From: Candidatus Bathyarchaeum sp.
GTDB lineage: Archaea > Thermoproteota > Bathyarchaeia > Bathyarchaeales > Bathyarchaeaceae
DNA: 14,045 bases
Reading direction: 5' to 3'
Assembly (NCBI GenBank): GCA_026014495.1
Contig: JAOZIF010000148.1
Coordinates: 1 to 14,045 of the forward strand
Part shown: positions 1 through 14,045 of the stretch, in pieces
Position numbering within the stretch: position 1 is the first letter of the stretch
Layout: every line of letters begins with the position of its first letter
The notes under the pieces: generated by a model
Told to the model about the DNA's origin: nothing
What the model saw: the letters and a program-made list of their open reading frames with translations, nothing else
Database searches by the model: none
Made by a program: the position numbers and the translations under genes

Positions 1-475
1 CGCCTCTTTCGAGATATTCAAGAACAAACCACCAGTCACCAATTAACGGAAAAGTTGCTTTGTCCAGCATTGGTATGTCATTTAATTCTTCGTGAGTGTG
101 CTTGGCTCCTAAAGGCGCCATTGACGGATTCATAACCGTGGTATAACCCATTTTTGAATAGCGATAACCAGTCGTAAAAGTTGACGGAATAGAGTAGCCA
201 ACACCAGACCTTGTTATGGCAGTCTTGTATTCAACATCTTTCACATGATCTTCTGGGCGCAAGAGTCTACCAGTGTTTACTTCTCCACCAGCAATGTGAG
301 TGTGAATGTCCACGCCACCAGGCATCACAGTTAAGCCAGTCGCGTCAACAATCTTTGCCTTGAGGTCACTAACAGTTTCAACGATTTTTCCATTCCGTAT
401 GGCTATATCCATTTTTTCTCCGTTAATCCCGTTGATGGGATCAAAGACAAAGCCGTTTTTTATCAGTAACTCCAT
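1..475 (-). CDS. fwdA: Formylmethanofuran dehydrogenase subunit A, 5' part (runs off the window start)
   Basis: Not in the ORF track; translated by hand from the ATG at 475-473: MELLIKNGFVFDPINGINGEKMDIAIRNGKIVE...VMPGGVDIHTHIAGGEVNTGRLLRPEDH...STFTTGYRYSKMGYTTVMNPSMAPLGAKHTHEEL. Contains the amidohydrolase PGGVDIHTH metal motif and the FwdA-type GYRY..MGYTT block. Starts 1 nt after the fwdB stop codon. Confidence 0.93.
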   Translation of the reverse strand, partial: MELLIKNGFVFDPINGINGEKMDIAIRNGKIVETVSDLKAKIVDATGLTVMPGGVDIHTHIAGGEVNTGRLLRPEDHVKDVEYKTAITRSGVGYSIPSTFTTGYRYSKMGYTTVMNPSMAPLGAKHTHEELNDIPMLDKATFPLIGDWWFVLEYLERG

Positions 476-476
476 T

Positions 477-1940
477 TTAGTTTGCCTCTTTACTCTTTTG
501 TGATTTTATACGTCGAACTTCTTCGAGTATTCTAGTCAATATTTCTTCATCTGAAAGGAACCCTTCTGGGGCCTCAACTACTTTTTTGAGAGGAAGTGGT
601 ACATGATCCATACGATAGGCAGTACCTTCTTTTTCTATACCTACGATTGACGATGGGAAGACCACGTCGCCTACCATCGAGGTGACGTTCATGTGAGGGT
701 CAATTACGATAAGAGGGTTCTTGACTAGGTGTTCAGCCGCTTTTTTCGGAAAGTTACTAACAGGGTCTGAAGCAATCACAAGGGCTGCGTCTGACTCTTT
801 TCGCAATAAAATGTCGACGACAGATGTTTCTCCTGGGTTGTATTGAGGATAACCTAAGGAAAAATCAATTGCGTAAGGATAGCCGCTCTGCCATGTGAAA
901 ACTGTGTTTGCACCGGTAACGTTAAAATGTCCTCTCATAGGTATGATGACAAATTTTGTTCGCATGTTTAAATCGCGTATGAGTGAAATTGCATCCTCTA
1001 TGTTTCTAAATTTACCTGCGCTCTGAGTTAAACCCATACCGAAAAATATTACCCCAAACTGGGCATTAATCATGACGTCAACTAGCTCTTCCAGATATTT
1101 CACCGAAACGCCGCCAACCTCATCAACGTCAAGCTCCTGTTCCTTAACTAGTGCGCGTATTGCCTGCATTAGTTCAAAGTCTTTGCCTGGTTTGACTTGG
1201 ATGAAATAGTCAGCCGCTTTGGCAGTCATTGTTTCTCGGACATCAACTACTACTAGTTTGCGTCCTTCTTTATTCAGGGTTTCAGGAGGCTTATTGTCAC
1301 TTACAGTTTCAGTGCTTTCACAGTGGAGGCCTCTTCTCCTTGCAGCACTTGACAGCTTTTTCTCGCCTATTGAAGCCTTAACTTTGTTAAGATAACTTTT
1401 CCATTCACTAGATTCAAATCGTCCGTCTGTGAATGATGTATACCGTTCTAAGTGTCTTGGATGTGCGCTCCATGGGTCACATCCCCAATAAATAATCAAA
1501 TCGGCACGGTGCCTAATCTGCCCCAATGTGGCTGTTGGGATTCCCACTTCTTGAACACCTAGAATTGACGGTCCATGACAAACAACTGCCGTGTTATCAA
1601 GGACACCGCCTACATTTTCCGCAATCTCCACGCCTACCCGTTGGGCTTCGCAGTCAGTAGAACTCCAACCATACAATATTGGATAGTTGGCGTTGGCGAG
1701 AATCTCAGCGGATTTGTGTATTGCTTCTTCATAGGAAACAGGAACCAGTTTTCCATCCTTTCGTACGAGAGGCGTTTTAGTGCGATGCTCGCTTATGTAA
1801 TTTAGAAATTTGGACTCACACATTGCACAGCCGTTTTTCACCTGAGTTACTTTGCCATCTGCGATGGTCAATTCAATGTCGTCACATAAACAGCCGCAAA
1901 CTGGACATGTTACAGATTTAACTATTGACATAACTTTCAC
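477..1940 (-). CDS. fwdB: Formylmethanofuran dehydrogenase subunit B (Mo/W-bisPGD catalytic subunit), Cys form
   Basis: N-terminal CPVCGCLCDDI [4Fe-4S] motif; metal-ligand motif VCHGPS with codon TGT at 1580-1578 (Cys, not Sec); RADLIIYWG, HPRH, IPMRGHFNVTG and YNPGET blocks. The GTG start overlaps the fwdD TGA (GTGA); an alternative ATG is at 1931. Confidence 0.93.
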   Translation of the reverse strand: MKVMSIVKSVTCPVCGCLCDDIELTIADGKVTQVKNGCAMCESKFLNYISEHRTKTPLVRKDGKLVPVSYEEAIHKSAEILANANYPILYGWSSTDCEAQRVGVEIAENVGGVLDNTAVVCHGPSILGVQEVGIPTATLGQIRHRADLIIYWGCDPWSAHPRHLERYTSFTDGRFESSEWKSYLNKVKASIGEKKLSSAARRRGLHCESTETVSDNKPPETLNKEGRKLVVVDVRETMTAKAADYFIQVKPGKDFELMQAIRALVKEQELDVDEVGGVSVKYLEELVDVMINAQFGVIFFGMGLTQSAGKFRNIEDAISLIRDLNMRTKFVIIPMRGHFNVTGANTVFTWQSGYPYAIDFSLGYPQYNPGETSVVDILLRKESDAALVIASDPVSNFPKKAAEHLVKNPLIVIDPHMNVTSMVGDVVFPSSIVGIEKEGTAYRMDHVPLPLKKVVEAPEGFLSDEEILTRILEEVRRIKSQKSKEAN

Positions 1941-2338
1941 TTTCCAAATTGGCTTTTAAGTAATTCTTTCAAGCTTAAGACCGGCTTATCAGGAGCTGCC
2001 TCAACTTCAGCGGGAGTTCCTCTGAAAGAAGGCATCCCAATGCTTGTTGTCTCGTTGCTGACAATTGAGTTAGCCCAAGGTCCATAAGGAATGTAAATCA
2101 TGCTGGGCATTGCACCTCTTGGATACTTTACCGCCCTAAGCACTACAGCGCCATTTGGAGTCGTCACCAGAATATTTGTTTTGTTCTTTATCCCCAGTTT
2201 CTTCATGTCACATATATCCATGTAACACATTGTGGTGCTTTCAAAATACCCTTTTGTGGCTTTTCCAGCCTCTTTGCCTACGCCCTGCTCAATAGTTCGG
2301 CCTGTAAGCAAAGTTACATGTAACTTTTGTTGAACCAT
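1937..2338 (-). CDS. fwdD: Formylmethanofuran dehydrogenase subunit D (molybdopterin-dinucleotide-binding domain)
   Basis: LLTGRTIEQG, IYIPYGPWAN and TTSIGMPSFRG motifs typical of FwdD; 133 aa; 4-nt overlap with fwdB. Confidence 0.9.
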   Translation of the reverse strand: MVQQKLHVTLLTGRTIEQGVGKEAGKATKGYFESTTMCYMDICDMKKLGIKNKTNILVTTPNGAVVLRAVKYPRGAMPSMIYIPYGPWANSIVSNETTSIGMPSFRGTPAEVEAAPDKPVLSLKELLKSQFGK

Positions 2339-2371
2339 ATTGCCTGACCTTACAAATAGGAAATTGTGGAG

Positions 2372-2381
2372 TTATATTTAA
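2372..2381 (-). promoter_or_regulatory. Putative archaeal TATA box for the fwdDBA operon
   Basis: The minus strand reads TTAAATATAA, about 33 nt upstream of the fwdD ATG. Confidence 0.5.
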
Positions 2382-2513
2382 GTGGTGAGTTTCAAAAAAA
2401 TGTAGAATTTAACATTGATCAAAGTCTGTAGCTACTTTTGGGCAGACAATTGCAGAGTAGTTACACTTAGACGGTAATTGTTGAAAAATCAAAGTTAGTG
2501 TCATAAACTAGTT

Positions 2514-3302
2514 TCAGAACACTATCCTTTCTGGGCAGGTATAGATGTTAATACGTTTTCCTCTTATGAAGCCCGCCAAAGTCAAACATGCAGATTCAGC
2601 CATCGTTATACCTGAAGAAAGTGCAGCTGACAAGGAGGCAATGATTGGCAAACCAACATTTGCTACTTTGAACGCTACGTCACCTGACATTCTCCCACTC
2701 AAAGCCAAGAAACAATCACCAAAATCAACCTTATTTAAAGCAGCCATACCAATCACTTTGTCTACGGCATTATGCCTACCCACATCTTCAGCCAAAGCAA
2801 CCAATTGACCACCAGCCTTGTATATTGCGGCAACATGAAAACCACCTGTTCGTCGGTAACCTTCAGCTTTGAAGTTAAGTTGTTTAACGCTGTCAAATAT
2901 GATTTGAGCTTTAACCTTTAGGCTCGATTTTACTTTGAGGTTTTTGTCGGAGTTCTGGTAAAGTGAGCCATCTCCGCAAGCTGAGTGGATTATACGTGCA
3001 TGGAGCCTTGAAATCTTTACACGTTCTTTAACTTTGATTTCTGGTTTCAACTTAACGTAACAAGTGCTTTCAGATTCTTTAAAAATGACTTCTTCAATTT
3101 CTTCGATAGATTTGAGTATGCCTTCAGACAGAAAATGTCCAACTGCTAATGCTTGAATGTCTGTTGGTGAGCACAAAATTGTTGCCCAGAAATTCGTGTT
3201 AATCAAAAGGTAAAGCGGCTTTTCTTCAGCAATGTAGTCTGGGATGATTTGAGCCTTTCCTGTGGACATGTCAAGCCGAGTTATGTTTACTTGCTGAACC
3301 AT
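2514..3302 (-). CDS. fdhD: Formate dehydrogenase accessory sulfurtransferase FdhD
   Basis: Signature EDVGRHNAVDKVIG, plus TGGFHVAA, LSGRMS and LAGFIRG blocks. The ATG at 3302 is preferred over the track's GTG at 3311 because AGGTG (3313-3309) looks like its ribosome-binding site. Confidence 0.9.
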   Translation of the reverse strand: MVQQVNITRLDMSTGKAQIIPDYIAEEKPLYLLINTNFWATILCSPTDIQALAVGHFLSEGILKSIEEIEEVIFKESESTCYVKLKPEIKVKERVKISRLHARIIHSACGDGSLYQNSDKNLKVKSSLKVKAQIIFDSVKQLNFKAEGYRRTGGFHVAAIYKAGGQLVALAEDVGRHNAVDKVIGMAALNKVDFGDCFLALSGRMSGDVAFKVANVGLPIIASLSAALSSGITMAESACLTLAGFIRGKRINIYTCPERIVF

Positions 3303-3402
3303 ATTCAACACCTATCTTGTTATTCATTTCTCAGATTAAATAATATAACGTGTTTACGGCTTCAGCAGTTTGGCTTCAAATAATAAGAAAATTTTGAAGG
3401 TA

Positions 3403-3412
3403 AATTAAATAG
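3403..3412 (+). promoter_or_regulatory. Putative TATA box for mobA (AATTAAATAG)
   Basis: The identical 10-mer occurs at 6347-6356 in front of tusA. The two copies lie 52 and 55 nt upstream of their start codons. Confidence 0.45.
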
Positions 3413-3463
3413 GTTGGACATGAATCCATAAACCTGAGCAAAAAAAATTGTTGTTATAAGGTA

Positions 3464-4552
3464 ATGGGCATGGCTAATCGCGCTGCAATAATACTTTCAG
3501 GAGGAAGAGCTGAAAGATTTCAAAATGCACAAGAAATTTGGCAAGACAAAGCTCTTGTTGTGCTTCATGGAAAGCCTCTTCTTGTTCATGCTGTTGAAAA
3601 CGTTAATGATGTTGTAGACGAAGTCGTGGTGTGTGTAAACAACGAAAAACGAAAAGCACACTACCTTGAAGTTCTAAAAAAACACAACATAAAAAACGCT
3701 AAACTACTTGTCGATGAAAAACGTAACAATATGGGCGGACCTATTGTTGGGATTCTAACTGGACTTTTTGCTGTTAAAGCAGATTATTGTTTTACACTTC
3801 CTTCTGACATGCCTTTTTTCCAGCCAAATGTCATCGATTACATGTTTGAATCACTAAAAGATTCACGTGTTTTAGTGCCGATGTGGCCTAATGGGCGGCT
3901 GGAAACGCTGACAATGGTTACTAAAAAACCGGATGTACTGGAAATTGCGAAAACACTTTACACGTTAAAGCGCCCCCGTTCCGACGACATAATGCGTGGA
4001 GCATTAAATGTTGTGCTTATGTCGATTGCCGACGAACTAATGGTTTTGGACCCCAAACTAAAAAGTTTTATTAACATTAACTCTCAAGCAGATTTTGTTA
4101 AGTTGCAGCCCCGTCAAGGTCAAGGACCATTTGTTGAAAGCGTGAGATTAACCTTTGGTGACCTGCCACTGCCTGAGCTGTTGAGGCTTCAAAAAGCTTC
4201 AGAACTGTTAAGTGATGACAACTTGTTGGAAGCATCAAAAGTCCTCTTTTCATGTTCAACTCAGTTAGAAACAGAAGGCTCGTATTTTTGGGCAGCAGTA
4301 AGCCGGGAAACTGAAGGAAAGTGTCTTCTACGTTTATCGGAACAGCAAGGATGTTCAGAATTTGCTCAACAGTATTTAGTTGATTGCAAAGAAGCGCTTC
4401 TGAAAGCTGTCAAGAATTATGAGTTGGAAGCTAAGTTGTACGACCATTATCATAGCATTTTCTTGGCAGAACGCGCAAGGTCGAACATGAATTGGTGTAA
4501 ATCTTTTGTTCGGGGTAAACTTTGCAAAATTGAAGGCTCTGCTTCAAGATAG
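3464..4552 (+). CDS. mobA: Molybdenum/tungsten cofactor guanylyltransferase (MobA-like NTP transferase) with an extra C-terminal helical domain
   Basis: ILSGGRAERF..DK, GGPIVGILTG, LPSDMPF and FININS motifs cover residues ~1-210. A further ~150 aa have no recognised motif. The gene is divergent from fdhD. Confidence 0.8.
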   Translation: MGMANRAAIILSGGRAERFQNAQEIWQDKALVVLHGKPLLVHAVENVNDVVDEVVVCVNNEKRKAHYLEVLKKHNIKNAKLLVDEKRNNMGGPIVGILTGLFAVKADYCFTLPSDMPFFQPNVIDYMFESLKDSRVLVPMWPNGRLETLTMVTKKPDVLEIAKTLYTLKRPRSDDIMRGALNVVLMSIADELMVLDPKLKSFININSQADFVKLQPRQGQGPFVESVRLTFGDLPLPELLRLQKASELLSDDNLLEASKVLFSCSTQLETEGSYFWAAVSRETEGKCLLRLSEQQGCSEFAQQYLVDCKEALLKAVKNYELEAKLYDHYHSIFLAERARSNMNWCKSFVRGKLCKIEGSASR

Positions 4553-4630
4553 CCTGTTCAGAGTTGTGACTGTTTTAAATCTTCTGAAGCTGTGTGTGCC
4601 GCTTTTTGAAAAGATGTCATTGTGATGTTT

Positions 4631-4708
4631 TGGTAGCGGGGAGTTGATTTGAACAACCGATCTCTGGGTTATGAGCCCAGCGGGTTCACCTGGCTACCCC
4701 ACCCCGCT
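4631..4708 (-). tRNA. Initiator tRNA-Met (CAT), archaeal type, CCA encoded, no intron
   Basis: The minus strand reads AGCGGGG TG GGGT AGCCAGGTGA ACCC G CTGGG CTCATAA CCCAG AGATC GGTTG TTCAAAT CAACT CCCCGCT A CCA. It shows an A1:U72 pair, G11:C24 and three G:C pairs at the base of the anticodon stem, all initiator hallmarks. Confidence 0.97.
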
Positions 4709-4871
4709 ACGTTGGGGCTAAAAGTTTTTGCCAGTCTAACTTTGTAGCCCGATGGATACCTTTTGTCGCACTCTTTCTTAAGCTTTGCTTTATCTTGTGT
4801 TTTGTTTCGGTTTACACTTGTCGTGGATGTGATGTTATATTTTGTGTGGTAACGGAAATCCTTTAACAATC

Positions 4872-4880
4872 CTTAAATTT
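4872..4880 (+). promoter_or_regulatory. Putative TATA box of the malic enzyme gene (probably a leaderless mRNA)
   Basis: CTTAAATTT ends 22 nt before the ATG at 4903, and no Shine-Dalgarno sequence lies in between. Confidence 0.35.
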
Positions 4881-4902
4881 CATAACTCTGAAAGCACAAT
4901 AC

Positions 4903-6261
4903 ATGACCAAAAAGTTAACCGTGGACGAACTTCTTGAAAAAGCAAAGAAACCTGCCAAGCTGGCGTTAGCTTATCATCCTTTCTACGCGGGAAAAGTTCA
5001 GGTTATGCCAAAATGTGTTATACGTGGTTCACAGGACTTTGCTATCTGGTATACTCCAGGTGTGGCTGCGTCCTGTAAAGCAATAAAAGATGACCCTGAA
5101 CAGGTTTTTTCTCATACGAGCAAATGGAACTATGTGGGTATTGTGAGTGACGGAACACGTGTGTTGGGTTTAGGTGACATCGGTCCAGAAGCTGCAATGC
5201 CTGTTATGGAAGGAAAAGCTTTGCTTTTTAAGTATCTTGGTGGTGTGGATGCTTTTCCTATATGTTTGGCAACAAAAAAGCCAGAGGATTTAGTTACTGC
5301 GTGTAAGTGGCTTGAGCCCACGTTTGGCGGCATAAACTTGGAGGATATTTCTAAACCTAAATGTTTCCATGTGCTAAACAATGCCCGTGATGAACTTAAT
5401 ATTCCCGTTTGGCACGACGACCAGCAGGGAACTGCCACAGTCATTCTGGCTGGGCTAATTAATGCCCTGAAGCTGGTTGGAAAACCTATGGATCAGGCAA
5501 AAATTGTTATACTTGGTGTAGGCGCGGCGAACACGCGAACTGCTTTGGTTGTTATGCGTGCAGGAGTTAAAGCTGGCAACCTAGTGATGGTTGATAGTCG
5601 CGGGATTTTGCATCCAAACCGAAAGGATGTGGAAGCAAGAAAGGAAGAGAATCCTTGGAAGTGGCGTTTTTGTCTTGAAACTAACAGTGAAGGACTTACT
5701 GGTGGTCCAGAAGAGGCACTGAAGGGTGCGGATGTTGTTATCGCTGCTTCTAAGCCAAGTCCTGATACTATCAAAAAGTCTTGGGTTAGTAGTATGGCAA
5801 CTGATTCGATTGTTTTTGCGTGTGCGAATCCAATTCCTGAGATTTGGCCTTGGGACGCAAAAGAGGCAGGAGCAAAGATTGTAGCTACTGGTCGTTCGGA
5901 TTTTGATAATCAGATAAACAATTCGTTGGGTTTTCCTGCTATCTTCAGGGGAGTTTTGGATGTTAAAGCCACGACTGTAACTGATGATATGTGTATTGCT
6001 GCGGCGAATGAGTTGGCGATTTTTGCGGAGGAGCGGGGCATCACCGAGGATGATATTGTTCCACGTATGGATGAGTGGGAAGTCTTTCCTAGGGAAGCTG
6101 TTGCGTGTGCTTTGGAGTCTATCAAGGAAGGTGTTGCTCGGGTCAAGCCAAGCAGGCAAGAGTTGTATGAACGGGCAACGCACATCATTAAGACTGCTCG
6201 AGAATCCACCGAGTTGTTGATGAAAAAAGGGCTTATTCCGCCTCCGCCAGAAGATATTTGA
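4903..6261 (+). CDS. NAD(P)-dependent malic enzyme (short MaeB-type, no PTA domain)
   Basis: VSDGTRVLGLGDIGPEAAMPVMEGKALLFK, GINLEDI, WHDDQQGTA, FACANPIPEI and ATGRSDFDNQINNSLGFPAIFRG motifs; 452 aa. Confidence 0.95.
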   Translation: MTKKLTVDELLEKAKKPAKLALAYHPFYAGKVQVMPKCVIRGSQDFAIWYTPGVAASCKAIKDDPEQVFSHTSKWNYVGIVSDGTRVLGLGDIGPEAAMPVMEGKALLFKYLGGVDAFPICLATKKPEDLVTACKWLEPTFGGINLEDISKPKCFHVLNNARDELNIPVWHDDQQGTATVILAGLINALKLVGKPMDQAKIVILGVGAANTRTALVVMRAGVKAGNLVMVDSRGILHPNRKDVEARKEENPWKWRFCLETNSEGLTGGPEEALKGADVVIAASKPSPDTIKKSWVSSMATDSIVFACANPIPEIWPWDAKEAGAKIVATGRSDFDNQINNSLGFPAIFRGVLDVKATTVTDDMCIAAANELAIFAEERGITEDDIVPRMDEWEVFPREAVACALESIKEGVARVKPSRQELYERATHIIKTARESTELLMKKGLIPPPPEDI

Positions 6262-6265
6262 GAAA

Positions 6266-6320
6266 AAGCTGGTTGATGGGTGCTTTGGGGCGTCCAGCTT
6301 CTTTTCTTTTTGGTTTTTTG
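6266..6320 (+). terminator. Putative terminator after the malic enzyme gene
   Basis: AAGCTGG (6266-6272) and CCAGCTT (6294-6300) form a 7-bp stem, followed by cttttctttttggttttttg. Confidence 0.45.
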
Positions 6321-6331
6321 CCCTGTCAAGC

Positions 6332-6348
6332 CTATAACATAGTTATAA
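6332..6348. promoter_or_regulatory. Palindromic operator candidate CTATAAC-ata-GTTATAA upstream of tusA
   Basis: 6-3-6 inverted repeat directly 5' of the TTAAATA box; the same motif occurs at 12708-12724. Confidence 0.6.
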
Positions 6349-6410
6349 TTAAATAGAGGGGAAACTATTTAGGTTATACAAAGAATTTTTGGTTTGTTGG
6401 AGGTTTGTAA

Positions 6411-6653
6411 TTGGGTAACCAAACTAAACCTGACAAAAACCTTGACTGCGTTGGTCTTTACTGTCCTGAACCCGTCTTTAGGACCCGTCAGGAACTCGAC
6501 AAACTTGATGTAGGCGAGGTTTTGGAGGTAATTGCGGACGACCCAGCTGCTGAGGCTGATATTCCTCTTCTGGTCAAGAGGCTTGGTTTAAAACTTCTTG
6601 AGATGTACAAAGAAGGCGATCAGATTCATTTTGTTATCAAAAAAGTAGAATAG
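6411..6653 (+). CDS. tusA: TusA/SirA-family sulfur carrier protein
   Basis: LDCVGLYCPEP (CPxP motif) and LEVIADDPAAEADIP; 80 aa; TTG start with GGAGGT at 6399-6404. Confidence 0.9.
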   Translation: MGNQTKPDKNLDCVGLYCPEPVFRTRQELDKLDVGEVLEVIADDPAAEADIPLLVKRLGLKLLEMYKEGDQIHFVIKKVE

Positions 6654-6667
6654 GAAGATTGTAACGC

Positions 6668-7843
6668 TTGAGAAAAGTGTATATGGATAACGGCGCTGGA
6701 ATGCCTCTAGATTCTAGAGTATTTGAAGCCATGAAACAGTACTTCATGGATGATTACGGTAATCCTTCTTCATCGCACTCTTTTGGAAACGCCGCCAAAA
6801 GCGCTATTGAGACTGCACGAGAAAAAGTTGCCCAGTTGATATCTGCGGAGAAGCCTCAAGAAATAATCTTTACTTCAGGAGGCACCGAATCCAACAATCT
6901 GGCAATAAAGGGTGTTGCCTACCGCAACCGTGCCAAAGGAAACCACATCATAACAACAGCTATCGAGCACATGTCTGTGATAAACATCTGCAAGTACCTT
7001 CAAAAAGAAGGCTTTGAAGTAACCTACGTTCCTGTAGACAAACAGGGCGTAGTTGACCTCAAAAAACTCAAAGCTGCAATAAACGAAAAAACCATACTCA
7101 TTTCAGTTATGTATGCAAACGGCGAAATTGGAACCATTCAGCCGATAAATGAGATTGGACAGTTAGCCAAAGAAAACAATGTTTTGTTTCATGTTGATGC
7201 TGTGGCTGCGGCAGGAAAGGTGCCAATAAACGTTCAAGAACAAAACATTGACCTTTTGTCAGTTTCTTCTAATGACATGTATGGACCCAAAGGCGTGGGT
7301 GCCCTGTACATAAAGAAGGGAACAAAGATTGTGCCCATCATTCAGGGTGGTGGTCAAGAGAGTGGATTGCGTTCAGGAACAGAAAACATTCCGGGCATAG
7401 TTGGCATGGGCAAAGCTGCAGAGCTTGCGCAATCTGAGATGGAATCTGAGAGCAAACGTTTGATTGGCCTGCGGGACAACCTAATCAAAGGAGTTTTGGA
7501 TAAAATTCCTTACTCTTTTTTGAATGGTCATCCCACAGCGAGACTTCCTAATAACGCAAACCTCAGGTTTAGTTATATAGAAGGGGAGTCTCTCATTTTA
7601 GGTCTGGACATGTATGGAATCCAAGTGTCCTCAGGCTCTGCGTGCACATCAAAAACGTTGCAGCCTTCGCATGTGCTCATGGCGATAGGTTTGCCCCATG
7701 AACAGGCTCACGGGTCTTTGGTGTTCACTTTGGGCAAACAAACCACACAAGAGGATGTGGATTACGTGCTGGAACTATTACCCGATGTGGTGAAAAGATT
7801 ACGGGCGCTTTCGCCCCTAACCCCAAAGGAACTCTTGAGGTGA
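6668..7843 (+). CDS. iscS: IscS/NifS-family (group I) protein, atypical: the PLP Schiff-base Lys is replaced by Asp
   Basis: GNPSS, FTSGGTESNNLAIKG, EHMSV, ANGEIGTIQPI, GGGQESGLRSGTEN and SSGSACTS (Cys326). The usual S(G/A)HKxYGPKG motif reads SSNDMYGPKG. Confidence 0.92.
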   Translation: MRKVYMDNGAGMPLDSRVFEAMKQYFMDDYGNPSSSHSFGNAAKSAIETAREKVAQLISAEKPQEIIFTSGGTESNNLAIKGVAYRNRAKGNHIITTAIEHMSVINICKYLQKEGFEVTYVPVDKQGVVDLKKLKAAINEKTILISVMYANGEIGTIQPINEIGQLAKENNVLFHVDAVAAAGKVPINVQEQNIDLLSVSSNDMYGPKGVGALYIKKGTKIVPIIQGGGQESGLRSGTENIPGIVGMGKAAELAQSEMESESKRLIGLRDNLIKGVLDKIPYSFLNGHPTARLPNNANLRFSYIEGESLILGLDMYGIQVSSGSACTSKTLQPSHVLMAIGLPHEQAHGSLVFTLGKQTTQEDVDYVLELLPDVVKRLRALSPLTPKELLR

Positions 7844-7852
7844 AAATAAAGT

Positions 7853-8230
7853 ATGTATAGCGAAAAAGTTATGGACCATTTCAGTAAACCACGAAACGTA
7901 GGCGAAATAAAAGACGCAGACGGAGTTGGAACCGTAGGCAACCCTGTCTGCGGCGACCTCATGACCATGTACATCAAAGTAAAAGACAACAAACTAGTTG
8001 ACGTAAAATTCAAGACATTTGGCTGCGGAGCAGCAATAGCCACAAGCAGCATGACCACCGAACTTGCAATCGGGAAGACCATTGAAGAAGCACTAAAAAT
8101 TAGCCGCGCCGAAGTAGCAGAAAACCTTGGAGGTCTTCCTCCCATCAAAATGCACTGCTCTAACCTAGCCGCCGACGCATTGCACGAAGCAATCAAAGAC
8201 TACCAAAAGAAACAAAAAGCAAAGCCATAG
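7853..8230 (+). CDS. iscU: Fe-S cluster scaffold IscU/NifU-N
   Basis: YSEKVMDHF..PRNVG, GNPVCGD, FKTFGCGAAIA and LPPIKMHCSNLA, with all three Cys, the Asp and the His present. The GAGGTGA ribosome-binding site at 7837-7843 includes the iscS stop codon. Confidence 0.95.
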   Translation: MYSEKVMDHFSKPRNVGEIKDADGVGTVGNPVCGDLMTMYIKVKDNKLVDVKFKTFGCGAAIATSSMTTELAIGKTIEEALKISRAEVAENLGGLPPIKMHCSNLAADALHEAIKDYQKKQKAKP

Positions 8231-8258
8231 CGTTCTTGTTTAGCTAATTTCTCTTTTC

Positions 8259-8293
8259 TATTAGACGCCTAATAGAGGTTCATTGTTGAAAAC
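8259..8293 (+). repeat. Dispersed 35-bp element, copy 1
   Basis: TATTAG-acgc-CTAATA-GAGGTTCATTGTTGAAAAC; 30/35 identical to copy 2 and 31/35 to copy 3, without gaps. Confidence 0.85.
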
Positions 8294-8397
8294 AGTGTTT
8301 TTTGAGGAAATTCTATGAACGACTGTTTTTTGTGTGCAGTTGTGACTTTTTTAGTGTTGTTATGATTTTTCTGGTTTTTACTGTTTGTTTTTGCATG

Positions 8398-9471
8398 TTA
8401 GTATTGTAGCTTGCCCAATCTCTGTCGAAAATGCTTGTGAATAAACCTCAAAACTGATATTAAGATGGAATTGCTTCCGACAATAACTGTTGTTCTTTTT
8501 TTAATTGTTGGATTCCAGATTTTGTCACCAGGAAGATTTGTAATGAAATCTATTTTGTTTACGTTTTTCTTTTTGAAAATGTTGTGAGTTATTTCTTTAG
8601 ATAAGAAATTACCTGGAGCATACTTTTTGAACTTTGAATTGTATGACGTTTTTACAAAAAAGGCTGTGCCGTTGTAGTTGAAAACCAACAAATAAGCAAT
8701 TGCTTGACCCTTTACTTCTAAAAACCAAACTTCAGGTTTGTATATTGGTTCAATCTTTGCATTTGCTTTAGCTGCAGTCAAAAAATTATACAGTTCATCT
8801 TCTTTTTGTTCTCCGTTTTGTTCTCGCAAGTTGTTCTTCCAGCTCACTTTTTCAATAGCAAAAATTCTGTCAATTGATTTAGAGTTCAGTTCATCACCAT
8901 AGATTTTCCATGTTCCCAATTCGCTGAGTTTGTGTTGTCTCCTGCGAAATTCTTTGCGAACTTTACCCTTTAATGAGCTGTAAAACTGTTCCCACTCTGA
9001 TTCTACTTGAATTATGGTTCTTCCCATAATTGGCGCTTTCAAGAGATGAAGTCCTTTTTGCCGACAAACTTTTTCTAATGTTTTTAGATTAGACTCACTT
9101 TGGAACGTGATGGCAATTATTCTGAATTTTAATCTGTTAAACAAAAACTCGACCATTTGAGTTATACACTCTTCACGGTATTCTTTGGAAATAACAAAGT
9201 CTGAATACACAACATTGCTCAGGTTACACACATACTTAACATGGAACATCTTTTGTATTGCCAACGGAACCAGTCCTACAAGTCTGTCTTCAACCCAGAA
9301 AGTTAACACCAAAGGACTCCCGCCCCTGTTTGAAGCATAACTCATTTCATTGCTAACTAAGCGACTGTACAAAAATGGGTTCTCGCCAGAAATCTCCAGC
9401 GCACGATTCCATTTGCTCTCTACTTCCGTGACCTCGTTGCAGTTAGTGATTACTTTTGTGGAGATTTCCAT
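8398..9471 (-). CDS. GNAT-family acetyltransferase, CelD/BcsL-like (tandem GNAT fold)
   Basis: 357 aa with LVGLVPL, YSDFV, RKEFRRRQHKLSELG, IEKVSWK, IAYLLVFNY and Y...F.KYAPGNFL..IDF patterns typical of this family. The gene is AT-richer than its neighbours. Confidence 0.72.
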   Translation of the reverse strand: MEISTKVITNCNEVTEVESKWNRALEISGENPFLYSRLVSNEMSYASNRGGSPLVLTFWVEDRLVGLVPLAIQKMFHVKYVCNLSNVVYSDFVISKEYREECITQMVEFLFNRLKFRIIAITFQSESNLKTLEKVCRQKGLHLLKAPIMGRTIIQVESEWEQFYSSLKGKVRKEFRRRQHKLSELGTWKIYGDELNSKSIDRIFAIEKVSWKNNLREQNGEQKEDELYNFLTAAKANAKIEPIYKPEVWFLEVKGQAIAYLLVFNYNGTAFFVKTSYNSKFKKYAPGNFLSKEITHNIFKKKNVNKIDFITNLPGDKIWNPTIKKRTTVIVGSNSILISVLRFIHKHFRQRLGKLQY

Positions 9472-9567
9472 TTCATTAAAACGTATACTGTTATCTGTTT
9501 ATTTCTTTTTTCATTTTTTGTAAGAAATGTGTTGTTACTTGTAGTTTATTCACACTTCTGTGCGGTA

Positions 9568-9602
9568 TATTAGGAGTCTAATAGCAGTTCATTGTTGAAA
9601 AC
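9568..9602 (+). repeat. Dispersed 35-bp element, copy 2
   Basis: TATTAG-gagt-CTAATA-GCAGTTCATTGTTGAAAAC, a direct repeat of copy 1. Confidence 0.85.
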
Positions 9603-9724
9603 TAGCTTTTTCGTGAAAAATTTCTGCACCGCACACGTTCACTACCAAAAGTTCACACATCTTAGCACATAAAAAATAGAACAACACATTCTTTGGAAAA
9701 CATGGATGCACACGTGCTATTGGT

Positions 9725-10378
9725 CTATGCTTGAAATGCCGAAGGACAAAGCTTGTTTAGGCTGCACCTGTCACATTTTGGTTTTCTTGCTGTGCAAACG
9801 TTTCGTCCATGAAATATCAACAGGTTGGTGATTTTTTTCCAGTGGCTCTTTGGAACAATCTCCATAAGGTCTGCTTCAATCTTGTCGGGGTTCGTGTTTT
9901 GTGTTAGTCCAAGTCTTTTGGAGAGTCTACGAACATGGGTGTCCACTGCTATTCCAACAATTACTCCGTACGCGTTTGATAACACTATGTTGGCTGTTTT
10001 TCGGGCAACCCCCGGCAACTCAACCAACTCCTCCATTGTACTTGGAACTTTAGAATCATATTTTTCGACAAGAAGTCGACCAGCATTTTTGAGGTTCTTA
10101 GCCTTGTTTCGGTAAAAGCCCGTGGACCTGATGTCCTCTTGAAGCTCCACTAAATCTGCGTTGGCGTAATCCTTTGCAGTTTGGTACTTCTTGAAAAGAG
10201 ATTTTGTGACAATATTCACCTGTTTGTCTGTGCATTGCGCAGAAAGAATCGTGGCCACCAAAATTTCCAGCGGATTATGGTAATGCAACGCAGTTTTAGC
10301 ATCTGGATACTCCTTTTCTAATAACTCAATAATTTTCAGTACTGTTTCTTTTTTTTCGGGTTCTGTTTTAGTTTCCAT
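9725..10378 (-). CDS. nth: Endonuclease III (HhH-GPD DNA glycosylase/AP lyase with a [4Fe-4S] cluster)
   Basis: LVATILSAQCTD, HhH motif LPGVARKTANIVL, AVDTHV and C-X6-C-X2-C-X5-C (CTARKPKCDRCSLNKLC). The ATG at 10378 follows GAGGTGA, so the track's GTG start at 10387 is probably part of the ribosome-binding site. Confidence 0.95.
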   Translation of the reverse strand: METKTEPEKKETVLKIIELLEKEYPDAKTALHYHNPLEILVATILSAQCTDKQVNIVTKSLFKKYQTAKDYANADLVELQEDIRSTGFYRNKAKNLKNAGRLLVEKYDSKVPSTMEELVELPGVARKTANIVLSNAYGVIVGIAVDTHVRRLSKRLGLTQNTNPDKIEADLMEIVPKSHWKKITNLLIFHGRNVCTARKPKCDRCSLNKLCPSAFQA

Positions 10379-12110
10379 GCACTTCACCTCTAATTACTTC
10401 AGCAACCTTTTCTGGGTCTTCGACAGACTTGCAGATTCCCCCAAAGCACACATACGCAGTAGGCACATCTGTAACTGGATACCTAAGACCTTTTAATCTG
10501 TCTTTTTCATGTTCTGGGTCCAATACTTCAACAACCTTCAACGGATTGTATGCTTTGAGGCTCTCGTTAAGAAACCGAGATGTCACCCCATCTTTTCTTG
10601 AACCAACTATGTGTATTTGCATGGAATGAAGATGCATCTCAACCGCTAAACCATAAACGGCACCCATTAGACCGTGCCGCTGATAATTTGAAGCAAAAAA
10701 CTCCAGTGTTTTCTTGGCAGCGTCAAAATATTTCTGATTTCCCGTTAAACTGTACAACCTCAACAAAACGTCAACTGCTACGCTGTTTTCTTCCAAAGGC
10801 TTATCTAACAATTTCAAAGCCCCAAACGCGCCACTTTCTTCAAGCCTATCATGGAAGCCTCCATTGCTGTCCCAAAGATTGCCCAGCATAAACTCTGCAA
10901 GCTGCTCTGCTTTATCCAAAAACTTTCGTTCCAAACTAACTTGGTAACAATCTATCAAACACTTAGTCATGTAAACTTGGTCTGCTAGAAGCCCAGAAAG
11001 ATGGCTTTTGCCTTCAAGGATGTAGTGACTCATTGCTTTGTTGGAGTTGAATGCTCTCTCCAGTAGCGACTCAACAGTTCGCAGAGCAAACTTCTGGTAT
11101 GACGACTCCTCAAGAACCACTGACGCTAACAGATAAGCTGAAACCATCATGGCATTCCAGTTAACAAAAATTGTCGTATCTATTTTGGGAGGTGTTTTGT
11201 TTTTTCGCTCCTTTAGACTAAGCTTGTAGTAAACTTCGTCAGCATCTTGACTACCATAAAAGCCGCCATTTTTCTGGTCACTAAGCTTAGCATTAATGTA
11301 TGCTAATATTCCCTTGGATGTGTCCTTGAATGATTGCTCTCCCGTAACCTGATACGCTTCCAGATAATTAACTAAAAGTTTAGCGTTGTCTTCACACATC
11401 TTTTCATAGTGGGGTATGCTCCAGTCACGAGTCGTAGAATAACGAAAAAAGCCCCCCTCTTCTGTGTCGTAAATGCCACCCGACTCCATTGCCGTCAAAG
11501 TTTTCTTTACTATAGATAACGCTGCAGGTTTCCCTTCAAGATGATGTATCAAAAGAGCAAGTCTCAATGCCTCGCTGTGCGGAAACTTTGGTGCAACACC
11601 AAACCCCCCATAAACAGAGTCAAACCGCGAAGCAACCTCCAACGTCAACGCATCAACAACTGACTGGAAAACATCGCTGCCCAAAACAGGCGACACTTGA
11701 GGTTTTAGCATCTTTTGTTGCAGTTCCGTTATTCTGGATTTGAGATTGCCTTTCTCTTTTTGGTACGTTAGGCTTACATGCTCAAGCAAAACCATCATCT
11801 GCTGCGGAGGAATATACGTACCACCAGTTAACACCTCCCCGTCAGGAGTCAAAAAGGCGGTGCTTGGCCAACCTCCCATATTATATCTTTTATCGATGTC
11901 TGGCCGCTGGTCTCGATCCACTCTTATTGGCACAAACAGTTCTTCAACAAGCCGCGCAACCTCACTGTCTGAATATGTTGTCTCATCCATAACATGACAC
12001 CAGTGACACCAAACAGCACTTATGCCCAAAAGAATCGGCTTATCCTGCTCTATTGCCTTCCGGAAAGACTCTTTGTTCCATGGCAGCCATGAAACTTTGG
12101 TTTTTGTCAT
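10368..12110 (-). CDS. DUF255/YyaL (SSP411/SPATA20-like) protein: thioredoxin-like domain plus six-hairpin glycosidase-like barrel
   Basis: WLPWNKESF..A...DKPILLGIS..WCHWCHVMDETTY, RVDRDQRPDID..Y..GGWP..AFLTPDG, FD..YGGFG.APKFP, GGFFRYST..DWSIPHYEKM..DNA and NWNAMM motifs; 580 aa; overlaps the nth start by 11 nt. Confidence 0.88.
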   Translation of the reverse strand: MTKTKVSWLPWNKESFRKAIEQDKPILLGISAVWCHWCHVMDETTYSDSEVARLVEELFVPIRVDRDQRPDIDKRYNMGGWPSTAFLTPDGEVLTGGTYIPPQQMMVLLEHVSLTYQKEKGNLKSRITELQQKMLKPQVSPVLGSDVFQSVVDALTLEVASRFDSVYGGFGVAPKFPHSEALRLALLIHHLEGKPAALSIVKKTLTAMESGGIYDTEEGGFFRYSTTRDWSIPHYEKMCEDNAKLLVNYLEAYQVTGEQSFKDTSKGILAYINAKLSDQKNGGFYGSQDADEVYYKLSLKERKNKTPPKIDTTIFVNWNAMMVSAYLLASVVLEESSYQKFALRTVESLLERAFNSNKAMSHYILEGKSHLSGLLADQVYMTKCLIDCYQVSLERKFLDKAEQLAEFMLGNLWDSNGGFHDRLEESGAFGALKLLDKPLEENSVAVDVLLRLYSLTGNQKYFDAAKKTLEFFASNYQRHGLMGAVYGLAVEMHLHSMQIHIVGSRKDGVTSRFLNESLKAYNPLKVVEVLDPEHEKDRLKGLRYPVTDVPTAYVCFGGICKSVEDPEKVAEVIRGEVHGN

Positions 12111-12253
12111 GAAAAGACCTACTTTTCTAAAAAACTTGCTATGACCTAAGCAATTTTTTGGCTAAATACTTTGAGTAATCACACCTTTTTTTGATACAAT
12201 TCTACAGGCACCAAAAAATGGGGGCCTAGGAGATGTTTCATTCGTAGCCTGCA

Positions 12254-12685
12254 TCAGATTAACAGGTTTATATCCGCGTCTGCAGCTATGTCTAAGAACG
12301 CTGCAGCACCTGCGATTTGGTCCACCTCAGGGATTAATGTATCCTTTGTTACTCCAAACATCTCCATGGTAGGACTGCACGCATAGATTCTCACATTTCC
12401 CGTAGCCTTCATCCGTTTAAGCATCTCATATGGTGTGGGATATTTCATTTCTTTGAGTTTTGTTTTCAACATCTCTTCATGTTGCTTGTATGTTGCGGGG
12501 AGTCCAGCCTGTTCCATGGCTCCCTTTTTGAGCATGTTAAGTCCCCAGAAAGTAAAGTATAGATGTACTTCCATGTCCATAGCTGCTGCCGTGGAGCCTA
12601 ATGTGAATGCACATAGGAGTTTGTCTATGGTGCCGCTGTGGACGACTAGTGCAACCTTCTTTTTTTCGGGCATAAAAATTTCCAT
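12254..12685 (-). CDS. DsrE/DsrF/DrsH-like (DsrE2/COG2210-type) sulfur-carrier or peroxiredoxin-like protein
   Basis: VALVVHSGTIDK, AAAMDMEVHLYFTFWGL, IYACSPTMEMFG and AGAAAFL motifs with the conserved Cys. The true start may be the ATG at 12673. Confidence 0.82.
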   Translation of the reverse strand: MEIFMPEKKKVALVVHSGTIDKLLCAFTLGSTAAAMDMEVHLYFTFWGLNMLKKGAMEQAGLPATYKQHEEMLKTKLKEMKYPTPYEMLKRMKATGNVRIYACSPTMEMFGVTKDTLIPEVDQIAGAAAFLDIAADADINLLI

Positions 12686-12707
12686 CCTTTACGGTAAATT
12701 AATAATA

Positions 12708-12724
12708 CTATAACGCTGTTATAA
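12708..12724. promoter_or_regulatory. Palindromic operator candidate CTATAAC-gct-GTTATAA overlapping the dsrE TATA box
   Basis: Same 6-3-6 palindrome and flanking bases as 6332-6348. On the minus strand it overlaps AAAAAATTTATAA, a BRE/TATA-like sequence. Confidence 0.6.
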
Positions 12725-12796
12725 ATTTTTTGTAGCTGTGTTTTTTGTGTTGTTTTATGTCTTTGTTTGTTGCTCCATAACGCTTATAACGAACAA

Positions 12797-12812
12797 ATGA
12801 ATATATATTCAT
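12797..12812. promoter_or_regulatory. Perfect 16-bp palindrome ATGAATATATATTCAT, an ArsR/SmtB-like operator candidate
   Basis: Exactly self-complementary, with a TGAA-N6-TTCA core. It lies 7 nt after TTATAA (12784-12789). Confidence 0.5.
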
Positions 12813-12979
12813 ATGAAGTTTATCTCAAAAGTGTGGTGAACCAAACGAAAAAAGGAAAACAAGACATGATAAAAACCGTCATCAAAAACAATAAACAATC
12901 AAACACAAACTTCATTGCCTACAATCAACTAACAGAACCATGGTACCTTCTTAGAAGCTAAAACAGGAAATCGAACATT

Positions 12980-13708
12980 ATGGTTTTAAGAAACATCGTA
13001 AAAATTGACGAAAAAAAATGCAACGGGTGCGGAGTATGCATACCCGCATGTGCTGAAGGCGCCATCCAAATAATTGACGGAAAAGCCAGACTAGTCAAAG
13101 ACATATACTGCGACGGTCTAGGCGCCTGCCTAGGAAAATGCCCCCAAGACGCCATAACAATCATACAAAGAGAAGCCCAAGAATTCGACGAAAAAGCAGC
13201 AGAAAAACACGTGAAACAAACCAGATCCACAGCTTCACTTGTCTGCCCTACTCCTACTGCATGTCCTTCAGTAAAAGCGATGCAATTCCCAGAAGAATCC
13301 ACCGAAAAATCAGCCTCAATGGTTACCGAAAACAGGAAAACAAGACTGACCACATGGCCTGTTCAGCTAAAACTGATGCCGCCTAATGCTCCTTTCTTGA
13401 AGAATGCTGATTTGCTGGTGACTGCTGATTGTGTGCCTTTTGCGTACGCAGATTTTCATGAGGACATGTTGAATAACAGGGTTCTTGCTGTTGGGTGCCC
13501 TAAACTTGATGATGCTAGCCTCTACAGGAACAAGTTGGCTGAGATATTTCGCACAGCGGACATCAGAAGCGTTACAGTGGTGAACATGGAGGTTCCTTGC
13601 TGTTTTGGTTTGAAGCGTTTGGTTCAAGAAGCTATGGAACTTTCAGGAAAGAAGGTTCCATTGAGGCAAGAAACAATCAGCATTAAAGGAGAAAAATTAG
13701 CCAAATAG
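12980..13708 (+). CDS. Fe-S protein: N-terminal 2x[4Fe-4S] ferredoxin domain plus a conserved Cys-containing C-terminal domain
   Basis: CNGCGVCIPAC and CDGLGACLGKCP motifs, a linker with two CP dipeptides, then WPVQL..ADCVPFAY..GCPKLDD..MEVPCC. Resembles the ferredoxin-like proteins often encoded with the hybrid-cluster protein in anaerobes. Confidence 0.75.
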   Translation: MVLRNIVKIDEKKCNGCGVCIPACAEGAIQIIDGKARLVKDIYCDGLGACLGKCPQDAITIIQREAQEFDEKAAEKHVKQTRSTASLVCPTPTACPSVKAMQFPEESTEKSASMVTENRKTRLTTWPVQLKLMPPNAPFLKNADLLVTADCVPFAYADFHEDMLNNRVLAVGCPKLDDASLYRNKLAEIFRTADIRSVTVVNMEVPCCFGLKRLVQEAMELSGKKVPLRQETISIKGEKLAK

Positions 13709-13711
13709 GAG

Positions 13712-13960
13712 ATGAAAAATAGTTTGGAATGCTCAAATGCAGAATCGTGCCCAGGAATCAAAAAGTTTCTTCGACCAAAGCCAGAATATATTCAGTGCCC
13801 AAACTGTGCTGGAAACGTGGAAATTTGGAGCGACGAAGATACTGCTGTTTGTGATATCTGCGGTAAAGAAGTTGGCAGGTCTGAAAAAGAAAAGTCCTGT
13901 TTAGACTGGTGTGAATACGCCGACAAATGTAGGGCAATAATAAGCAGCAAGAAGCACTAA
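13712..13960 (+). CDS. Small Cys-rich putative metal-binding (zinc-ribbon-like) protein
   Basis: 82 aa with 9 Cys: CPG, CPNC..VEIWSDE..CDIC and CLDWC-X5-C. Starts 3 nt after the upstream gene's stop codon. Confidence 0.7.
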   Translation: MKNSLECSNAESCPGIKKFLRPKPEYIQCPNCAGNVEIWSDEDTAVCDICGKEVGRSEKEKSCLDWCEYADKCRAIISSKKH

Positions 13961-14006
13961 GCATTTGCTCTTTTTGGTGCTTTTCCCTTTTTTCTGAAAA
14001 AACCTA

Positions 14007-14041
14007 GTTTTCAACAATGTACCTCTATTAGTCTCCTAATA
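14007..14041 (-). repeat. Dispersed 35-bp element, copy 3 (inverted relative to copies 1 and 2)
   Basis: The minus strand reads TATTAG-gaga-CTAATA-GAGGTACATTGTTGAAAAC, followed by TAGGTTTTT (copy 2 has TAGCTTTTT). Confidence 0.85.
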
Positions 14042-14045
14042 TGGA

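Follow-up and report, generated by a model that had tools for sequence, protein, structure and literature searches.

A tusA-iscS-iscU operon with a lysine-less IscS and a DsrE-family gene behind a common putative operator in a Candidatus Bathyarchaeum genome

The DNA analyzed here, called the window throughout, is a stretch of 14,045 nucleotides from Candidatus Bathyarchaeum sp. (contig JAOZIF010000148.1 of assembly GCA_026014495.1, positions 1 to 14,045). It carries a short operon of tusA, iscS and iscU, in which IscS has no lysine for pyridoxal phosphate (PLP), and a separate DsrE-family gene preceded by the same palindrome as the operon. The source genome belongs to the Bathyarchaeia, comprises 2.19 Mb in 196 contigs at 93% completeness, and has Ca. 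Bathyarchaeum species as its nearest relatives. The gene map was based on the listing of open reading frames (ORFs) together with Pfam and NCBIfam profile scans of the window. The features of the operon and of the DsrE-family gene were as follows.

6333-6347: operator palindrome TATAAC-ATA-GTTATA, 64 nt 5' of the tusA start, overlapping an A/T-rich TATA-like stretch.
6411-6653, plus strand: tusA, 80 amino acids (aa), with a TTG start preceded by GGAGG (PF01206, 82.8 bits).
6668-7843, plus strand: iscS of the Asn-Asp type, 391 aa (PF00266, 281 bits).
7853-8230, plus strand: iscU, 125 aa (PF01592, 172 bits; TIGR03419, 211 bits, above its cut-off).
12254-12685, minus strand: DsrE-family (DrsE_2) gene, 143 aa (PF13686, 102 bits).
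12709-12723: second operator palindrome, TATAAC-AGC-GTTATA on the minus strand, 24 nt 5' of the dsrE ORF start in the divergent dsrE/fer4 intergenic region.

The intergenic gaps are 14 nt between tusA and iscS and 9 nt between iscS and iscU. An earlier note on this DNA had named fwdDBA, fdhD, mobA, tusA, iscS, iscU and a DsrE-family gene, and all of them were found in the window.

The window IscS carries the motif S-S-N-D-M-Y-G-P-K-G, in which Asn202-Asp203 take the place of the desulfurase His-Lys (S-x-H-K), and Ala180 occupies the position of the PLP-contacting Gln of the D-A-x-Q motif. Cys326, on the flexible loop (S-S-G-S-A-C), is retained in the window protein and in all 82 aligned sequences. 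The NifS model TIGR03402 was matched at 559.8 bits against a cut-off of 530.75, and this curated model is blind to the missing lysine. Compared with the class-V cysteine desulfurases (EC 2.8.1.7), the protein has the fold, the family score and the loop cysteine and lacks the Schiff-base lysine. It fits the Asn-Asp class of the Archaeoglobus fulgidus IscS2 type, defined by Asp for the PLP lysine, the Cys loop and an adjoining iscU. In the PDB, A. fulgidus IscS2 (4EB5, E 4e-141) was the closest match and shows the identical S-S-N-D; its D199K variant (4R5F) came next.

All 80 fetched loci with relatives of the window IscS displayed both N-D and the Cys loop. In the tree, 85 Asn-Asp sequences formed one clade (support 0.948) that held no Lys-type sequence. 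This clade reaches across several archaeal phyla (identities of 60-87%), and none of the 85 sequences departs from N-D or lacks the Cys loop. The Asn-Asp clade appears old and conserved. Its members are predicted to form no Schiff base with PLP and hence would have no capacity to take sulfur from cysteine.

According to PMC7585200, which cites Marinoni 2012, Yamanaka 2013 and Pagnier 2014, desulfurase activity is absent from A. fulgidus IscS, which contributes a Cys ligand to the [2Fe-2S] cluster bound by IscU. The structures of the A. fulgidus pair, in which IscS is a partner of the scaffold and a ligand of the cluster, are described in PMC7585200 and PMC13066941. The window resembles the A. 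fulgidus IscS2-IscU pair (4EB5, 4EB7, 4HVK; D199K, 4R5F) in the S-S-N-D motif, the Cys loop and an iscU directly downstream, and differs in that tusA opens the operon and that dsrE is co-regulated in trans. The accessible literature on the A. fulgidus pair does not discuss TusA or DsrE partners or the sulfur source. IscS1 of Methanosarcina acetivorans (MA0808; IscU1, MA0807) also lacks the catalytic lysine and may act like A. fulgidus IscS; IscS1-IscU1 was uncharacterized, the recombinant protein being insoluble, and the gene neighbors of iscS1-iscU1 were not mentioned in that paper (PMC7585200).

The gene order around iscS was compared in two sets of 80 loci each. The first was collected from relatives of the window IscS, and the second was seeded with a Lys-type paralog and contained five Bathyarchaeia, the remainder being DPANN archaea, candidate phyla radiation (CPR) bacteria and Clostridia. 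Four loci of the Lys-seeded set proved to be N-D, and all four had tusA upstream. Of the assessable Asn-Asp IscS genes, 70 of 75 had tusA upstream on their own strand at a distance of up to 1.5 kb; for the assessable Lys-type genes the count was 2 of 71. Within 3 kb, 39/84 Asn-Asp loci and none of the 75 Lys-type loci contained a DsrE-like gene, and iscU followed directly downstream at 77/84 and 45/75, respectively. The dsrE gene occurred in three arrangements, which were dsrE-tusA-iscS-iscU, tusA-dsrE-like-iscS-iscU and tusA-iscS-iscU-dsrE. It stands directly 5' of tusA in five loci (L026, L027, L029, L031 and L069), whose DsrE proteins are 73-81% identical to that of the window. The window dsrE itself lies 4.4 kb from tusA-iscS-iscU; in sister lineages it is inside the operon. 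The Asn-Asp IscS with tusA and iscU was also seen on contigs of two metagenome-assembled genomes labeled Eubacteriales (L134 and L155), both among the four N-D loci of the Lys-seeded set, and L155 has a DsrE-like gene in addition. These bacterial-labeled cassettes suggest either horizontal transfer or misbinned contigs.

The residues expected of sulfur carriers and of a scaffold are conserved in the partners. TusA has a C-P-E-P motif with Cys18, which is invariant in 76/76 TusA neighbors of Asn-Asp IscS genes; its PF01206 score compares to a cut-off of 28.6, and the NCBIfam TusA equivalog was matched at 63.5 bits, under the cut-off of 78. Cys103 of the DsrE-family protein is invariant in 41/41 sequences. 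This protein is a member of Pfam DrsE_2 and scored 74.8 bits against the DsrE2 equivalog NF047629, short of the cut-off of 210. IscU contains Cys33, Asp35, Cys58, Cys102 and L-P-P-I-K, and the ligands are invariant in 77/77 sequences.

The genome encodes one copy each of iscU, tusA, dsrE and fdhD. No match to SufB/D or to rhodanese was found in the genome, and SufB/D was likewise not matched in any of five complete Bathyarchaeia chromosomes or in the window's family. Since there is one iscU and no SufB/D in the genome or its family, the lysine-less IscS-IscU appears to be the sole iron-sulfur (Fe-S) scaffold system found in the window's lineage. Across the class Bathyarchaeia, SufB/D was present in 26 of 61 genomes. 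The SufB/D and IscS-IscU types seem partly complementary in this class, and all three genomes without a class-V desulfurase-like match carry SufB/D. In some Bathyarchaeia families IscS is of the Lys type and tusA is missing, and in others the Asn-Asp type occurs together with tusA.

The palindrome TATAACNNNGTTATA occurs twice in the window (6333-6347 and 12709-12723), compared to 0.01 expected by chance. The earlier note had proposed a common operator at tusA and dsrE, and this proposal was borne out by the two sites and by their conservation in relatives. In the whole genome, we counted four perfect and five one-mismatch sites, eight of which are intergenic. They lie upstream of tusA, dsrE, a cysteine synthase gene (cysK/M), a Lys-type IscS gene, a gene for a 133-aa helix-turn-helix (HTH) protein and a 110-aa ORF. 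Two of these targets outside the window were located as follows.

L170:3550-4560 (contig C194:6050-7060): cysteine synthase CysK/M (TIGR01136, 370 bits), with a perfect operator at C194:6009-6023, 27 nt upstream.
L171:2708-3109 (contig C189:2708-3109): 133-aa XRE-type HTH protein, with a one-mismatch operator at C189:2678-2692, 16 nt 5' of the start.

In the 19 nearest relatives, tusA is preceded at 62-68 or about 100 nt by the conserved operator arms, whose 3-nt spacer varies. In one further locus (L009) the operator stands upstream of dsrE. The Lys-type paralog is preceded in 5/6 members of the genus by TATAAC-N3-GTTATG after a TTTAAATA box, and perfect sites were found upstream of Lys-type IscS genes in four other families. 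In the complete genome of Ca. B. tardum, the orthologs of tusA, dsrE and the HTH gene, and that of the 110-aa ORF, have sites upstream. Further sites in B. tardum stand before a second DsrE-like gene and before genes for a CysK/M-like protein, a MetY-like Cys/Met PLP enzyme and a flavodiiron protein. From this placement, TATAAC-N3-GTTATA is predicted to mark a regulon of sulfur assimilation and Fe-S assembly.

The HTH protein has a Cys-rich C-terminal tail (C-x2-C, C, C, C-x2-C). Its B. tardum ortholog is 77% identical and likewise has the operator upstream, and in G055, a genome of the window's order, a homolog with 50% identity is located at 1.9 kb from the cassette. The protein gave no PDB, NCBIfam or Rrf2 match, and the Atlas returned 'HTH cro/C1' clusters only. 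It is a candidate for an autoregulated regulator of the sulfur and Fe-S regulon outside the characterized families. The arrangement resembles the bacterial IscR (Rrf2-family) regulon in that one palindrome precedes Fe-S assembly, desulfurase and cysteine-synthesis genes, and in that the candidate regulator is Cys-rich and has a site before its own gene. It differs from IscR in the regulator itself, since the candidate, 133 aa long, belongs to the XRE-type HTH proteins, lacks an Rrf2 match and binds the operator only putatively.

The earlier note had described the locus as one without a conventional cysteine desulfurase, a description that another Lys-type IscS or SufS in the genome would undo. 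A Pfam Aminotran_5 search of the whole genome returned one such enzyme, a 390-aa IscS/NifS paralog on contig C161 that is 54% identical to the window IscS. It has S-S-H-K-M-Y-G-P-K-G, the D-A-V-Q motif and the Cys loop, exceeds the NifS model cut-off and has the same palindrome upstream. No iscU was found beside it. Thus, the statement that the only IscS lacks the Schiff-base Lys holds within the window and fails genome-wide, where the intact His-Lys enzyme also refutes the absence of a conventional desulfurase.

A Lys-type enzyme (NifS-, SufS- or IscS-like) accompanies the Asn-Asp type in four of five chromosome-level Bathyarchaeia genomes and in Ca. B. tardum, and most of 121 sampled Bathyarchaeia genomes had a SufS-like match of more than 400 bits. 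The Asn-Asp type was alone, meaning that no other enzyme was matched at E <= 1e-25, in three genomes: CP070791.1 (G001), G076 (the window's genus, 95% complete) and G055 (96% complete), the last of which is also without SufB/D. Given these three genomes, the cassette in general may be supplied with sulfur without a desulfurase.

The window also carries molybdenum/tungsten (Mo/W) cofactor genes and the features that separate them from the tusA operon.

2-2338, minus strand: fwdA (truncated by the window end), fwdB and fwdD (FwdB, TIGR03129, 569.3 bits, cut-off 327.8; the FwdA and FwdD models match too).
2514-3311, minus strand: fdhD (TIGR00129, 206.1 bits, cut-off 140.9).
3464-4552, plus strand: mobA-like nucleotidyltransferase gene, 362 aa (PF12804, 95.6 bits, residues 8-154).
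4631-4708, minus strand: tRNA-Met.
4903-6261, plus strand: malic enzyme gene.
6277-6296: terminator-like hairpin 3' of the malic enzyme gene.

FdhD, an accessory sulfurtransferase that serves the sulfido ligand of Mo/W-bisPGD, contains one Cys, located in an S-A-C-G loop. The MobA-like protein was matched by MobA models in residues 8-215 only, all under their cut-offs, and its C-terminal ~150 residues had no family match. The fwdDBA genes encode a tungsten/molybdenum formylmethanofuran dehydrogenase, which is probably the client of FdhD and MobA. The fwd-fdhD-mobA genes stood beside tusA-iscSU in 2 of 80 related loci, both from the nearest relatives, so the Mo/W link is taken as incidental. 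No operator was found at fdhD or mobA in the window. With this synteny and without an operator, membership of the Mo/W genes in the tusA-dsrE unit was rejected. The sulfur relay of the earlier note stands in part. The functional link of TusA, DsrE and the lysine-less IscS-IscU is supported by gene order across phyla, the invariant carrier cysteines and the conserved common operator. Its extension to FdhD and Mo/W-cofactor maturation did not hold, with a neighborhood shared by two loci and spacer genes in between.

We consider it probable that the window holds two units, namely a housekeeping Fe-S operon, tusA-iscS-iscU, fed with sulfane sulfur by TusA and DsrE, and an ordinary fwdDBA-fdhD-mobA cluster for Mo/W-cofactor maturation that is adjacent by chance. 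By analogy with the crystal structures of A. fulgidus IscS2-IscU, the Asn-Asp IscS would hold IscU and lend Cys326 to the nascent [2Fe-2S] cluster. Cys18 of TusA would hand sulfane sulfur to Cys326 of IscS and to IscU, opposite to the direction in Escherichia coli, and the DsrE-family protein, through Cys103, would act as a second carrier upstream of TusA. In the window's genome, the carriers could be loaded from cysteine by the C161 Lys-type IscS/NifS, since the tusA operon, dsrE, the cysteine synthase gene and the gene of this enzyme are under one operator. In the relatives with the Asn-Asp type only, the cassette would be independent of a Lys-type enzyme, so that inorganic sulfane sulfur might equally well load the carriers. 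Two observations favor desulfurase-independent loading: the desulfurase of other cassette genomes varies or is missing, and tusA is almost never found beside an active IscS. The co-regulated Lys-type enzyme and cysteine synthase favor the cysteine route in the window's genome.

A bolder form of this reading is put forward tentatively, and we regard it as doubtful. In Bathyarchaeia without SufB/D, the cassette would be the sole Fe-S machine, working from carriers loaded with inorganic sulfur and without PLP desulfuration, and the Cys-rich XRE-type regulator would govern it together with cysteine and homocysteine synthesis through TATAAC-N3-GTTATA.

Several points weigh against these interpretations. 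One of the six seed peptides of the first locus set (N-D-M-Y-G-P-K-G) itself contains N-D, which biases that set toward N-D sequences, and five Asn-Asp loci have no tusA. Because the Asn-Asp IscS forms a single clade, the tusA association may be a retained clade trait, perhaps a single evolutionary event, and with a single origin the Fisher P for this association overstates independence. As the genome is 93% complete, the absence of SufB/D leans partly on relatives. A reversed control pattern of the operator had three perfect sites in the genome compared to four for the palindrome, and in B. tardum both had 15 sites at up to one mismatch. The palindrome count is therefore not significantly above the control, and only placement and conservation make the case for the operator. 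The proposed direction of sulfur flow is read from gene order alone.

The active, Lys-containing IscS of E. coli loads TusA and FdhD. The window shares with this system the protein families, the TusA C-P-x-P cysteine and an FdhD over the NCBIfam cut-off. It differs in that the IscS adjoining TusA is predicted to be unable to load it, so the flow would run the opposite way or start at another enzyme. In sulfur oxidizers, the persulfide relays of DsrEFH, DsrE2, DsrE3 and TusA feed dissimilatory oxidation through DsrC and sHdr (PMC3397948, PMC11094781). The likeness to these relays lies in the pairing of a DsrE-family protein with TusA and in the conserved active cysteine of each. In contrast, no dsr/hdr genes are nearby in the window, the partner is an Fe-S scaffold, and the DsrE2 equivalog cut-off is not reached. 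The MIS system (MisS-MisU, Garcia et al.) is described in two reviews (PMC13066941, PMC12192291) as having a desulfurase and no intermediate sulfurtransferase. The window is similar to MIS in the adjoining IscS-like and IscU-like pair in an anaerobic archaeon, and there are no chaperone genes beside the pair. It departs from MIS in that its IscS is without the PLP lysine and a TusA carrier, along with DsrE, is attached.

The model of the earlier note, in which no desulfurase works and sulfide or polysulfide passes through DsrE and TusA to IscS Cys326/IscU and to FdhD, with 13 kb as one locus, is rather unlikely. The linkage of TusA, DsrE, Asn-Asp IscS and IscU that it assumed does hold, three related genomes have the Asn-Asp type alone, and neither rhodanese nor SufB/D was matched in the genome. 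FdhD and TusA are each single-copy, and sulfide-fed Fe-S assembly is established for Methanococcus and the SMS system (PMC7585200; PMC12192291). However, the C161 Lys-type IscS/NifS is intact and has its operator in common with tusA, dsrE and cysteine synthase, and most sampled Bathyarchaeia have a Lys-type SufS-like or NifS-like enzyme. In addition, fwd-fdhD-mobA is next to the tusA operon in the two loci given above, with the tRNA, malic enzyme gene and hairpin between them, and fdhD and mobA have no operator site.

Somewhat less likely again is the textbook direction, by which the Lys-type IscS/NifS is the only sulfur mobilizer and loads both TusA, for tRNA thiolation and molybdenum cofactor, and IscU. 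The Asn-Asp IscS would then be no more than a structural partner and cluster ligand, and the placement of tusA would serve co-regulation and not the feeding of IscS-IscU. As this direction would have it, no iscU adjoins the Lys-type paralog, which shares one operator with the tusA operon and cysK/M, and E. coli IscS loads TusA (PMC11302051). On the other hand, the Lys-type enzyme varies among cassette genomes (NifS-, SufS- or IscS-like, or none), which leaves no conserved partner desulfurase. The 2/71 frequency of tusA beside Lys-type IscS is unexpected for a simple client of an active desulfurase, and DsrE-like genes join the Asn-Asp type only. That the Asn-Asp IscS is a decaying pseudo-enzyme in a cluster without special meaning is hardly credible, as three altered PLP-site residues are set against an intact ORF, the invariance of N-D and the Cys loop across several archaeal phyla, and a partner IscU that is the only Fe-S scaffold found in the genome.

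The A. fulgidus IscS-IscU structures left the question of where an IscS incapable of cysteine desulfuration obtains its sulfur. The attachment of TusA and DsrE to precisely the Asn-Asp IscS clade offers a concrete, testable answer, and because IscS-IscU appears to be the sole scaffold in the lineage, this answer would concern housekeeping metabolism and not a spare copy. If the bolder reading is true, a cassette supplied by inorganic-sulfur carriers would add a third sulfur supply for Fe-S clusters to the two formed by cysteine desulfurases and by free sulfide on SMS. The common operator points to a candidate regulator and would sketch, for archaea, a regulon comparable to the IscR/CymR-type sulfur and Fe-S regulons of bacteria. 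Published work already covers the inactive A. fulgidus IscS and the lysine-less M. acetivorans IscS1; in open-access papers and bioRxiv, no paper was found that links TusA or DsrE to IscU/IscS in archaea or describes the operator.

The remaining genes of the window surround dsrE or lie between it and iscU.

8398-9471, minus strand: GNAT-family gene.
9725-10387, minus strand: endonuclease III gene.
10368-12110, minus strand: DUF255 thioredoxin-like gene.
12980-13708, plus strand: ferredoxin-domain gene.

The ferredoxin-domain gene and an 82-aa ORF are transcribed divergently from dsrE, and the DUF255 thioredoxin-like gene lies 3' of dsrE. Ca. B. tardum (L190) has the same arrangement of dsrE, ferredoxin and DUF255 genes (window 10368-13960), and L015 has part of it. 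These neighbors may be redox partners of the DsrE carrier. An Rfam scan of the window returned the tRNA and no other match.

An intergenic repeat of about 35-60 nt was observed at window positions 8259-8320, 9568-9629 and 13989-14042 (inverted), with a partial copy at 2468-2487, giving three to four copies. It carries a T-A-T-T-A-G / C-T-A-A-T-A hairpin and the core GTTCATTGTTGAAAAC. At least 57 blastn matches on 40 contigs of the genome were obtained, positioned between genes without exception. The repeat may be a small mobile element, a terminator or a regulatory motif.

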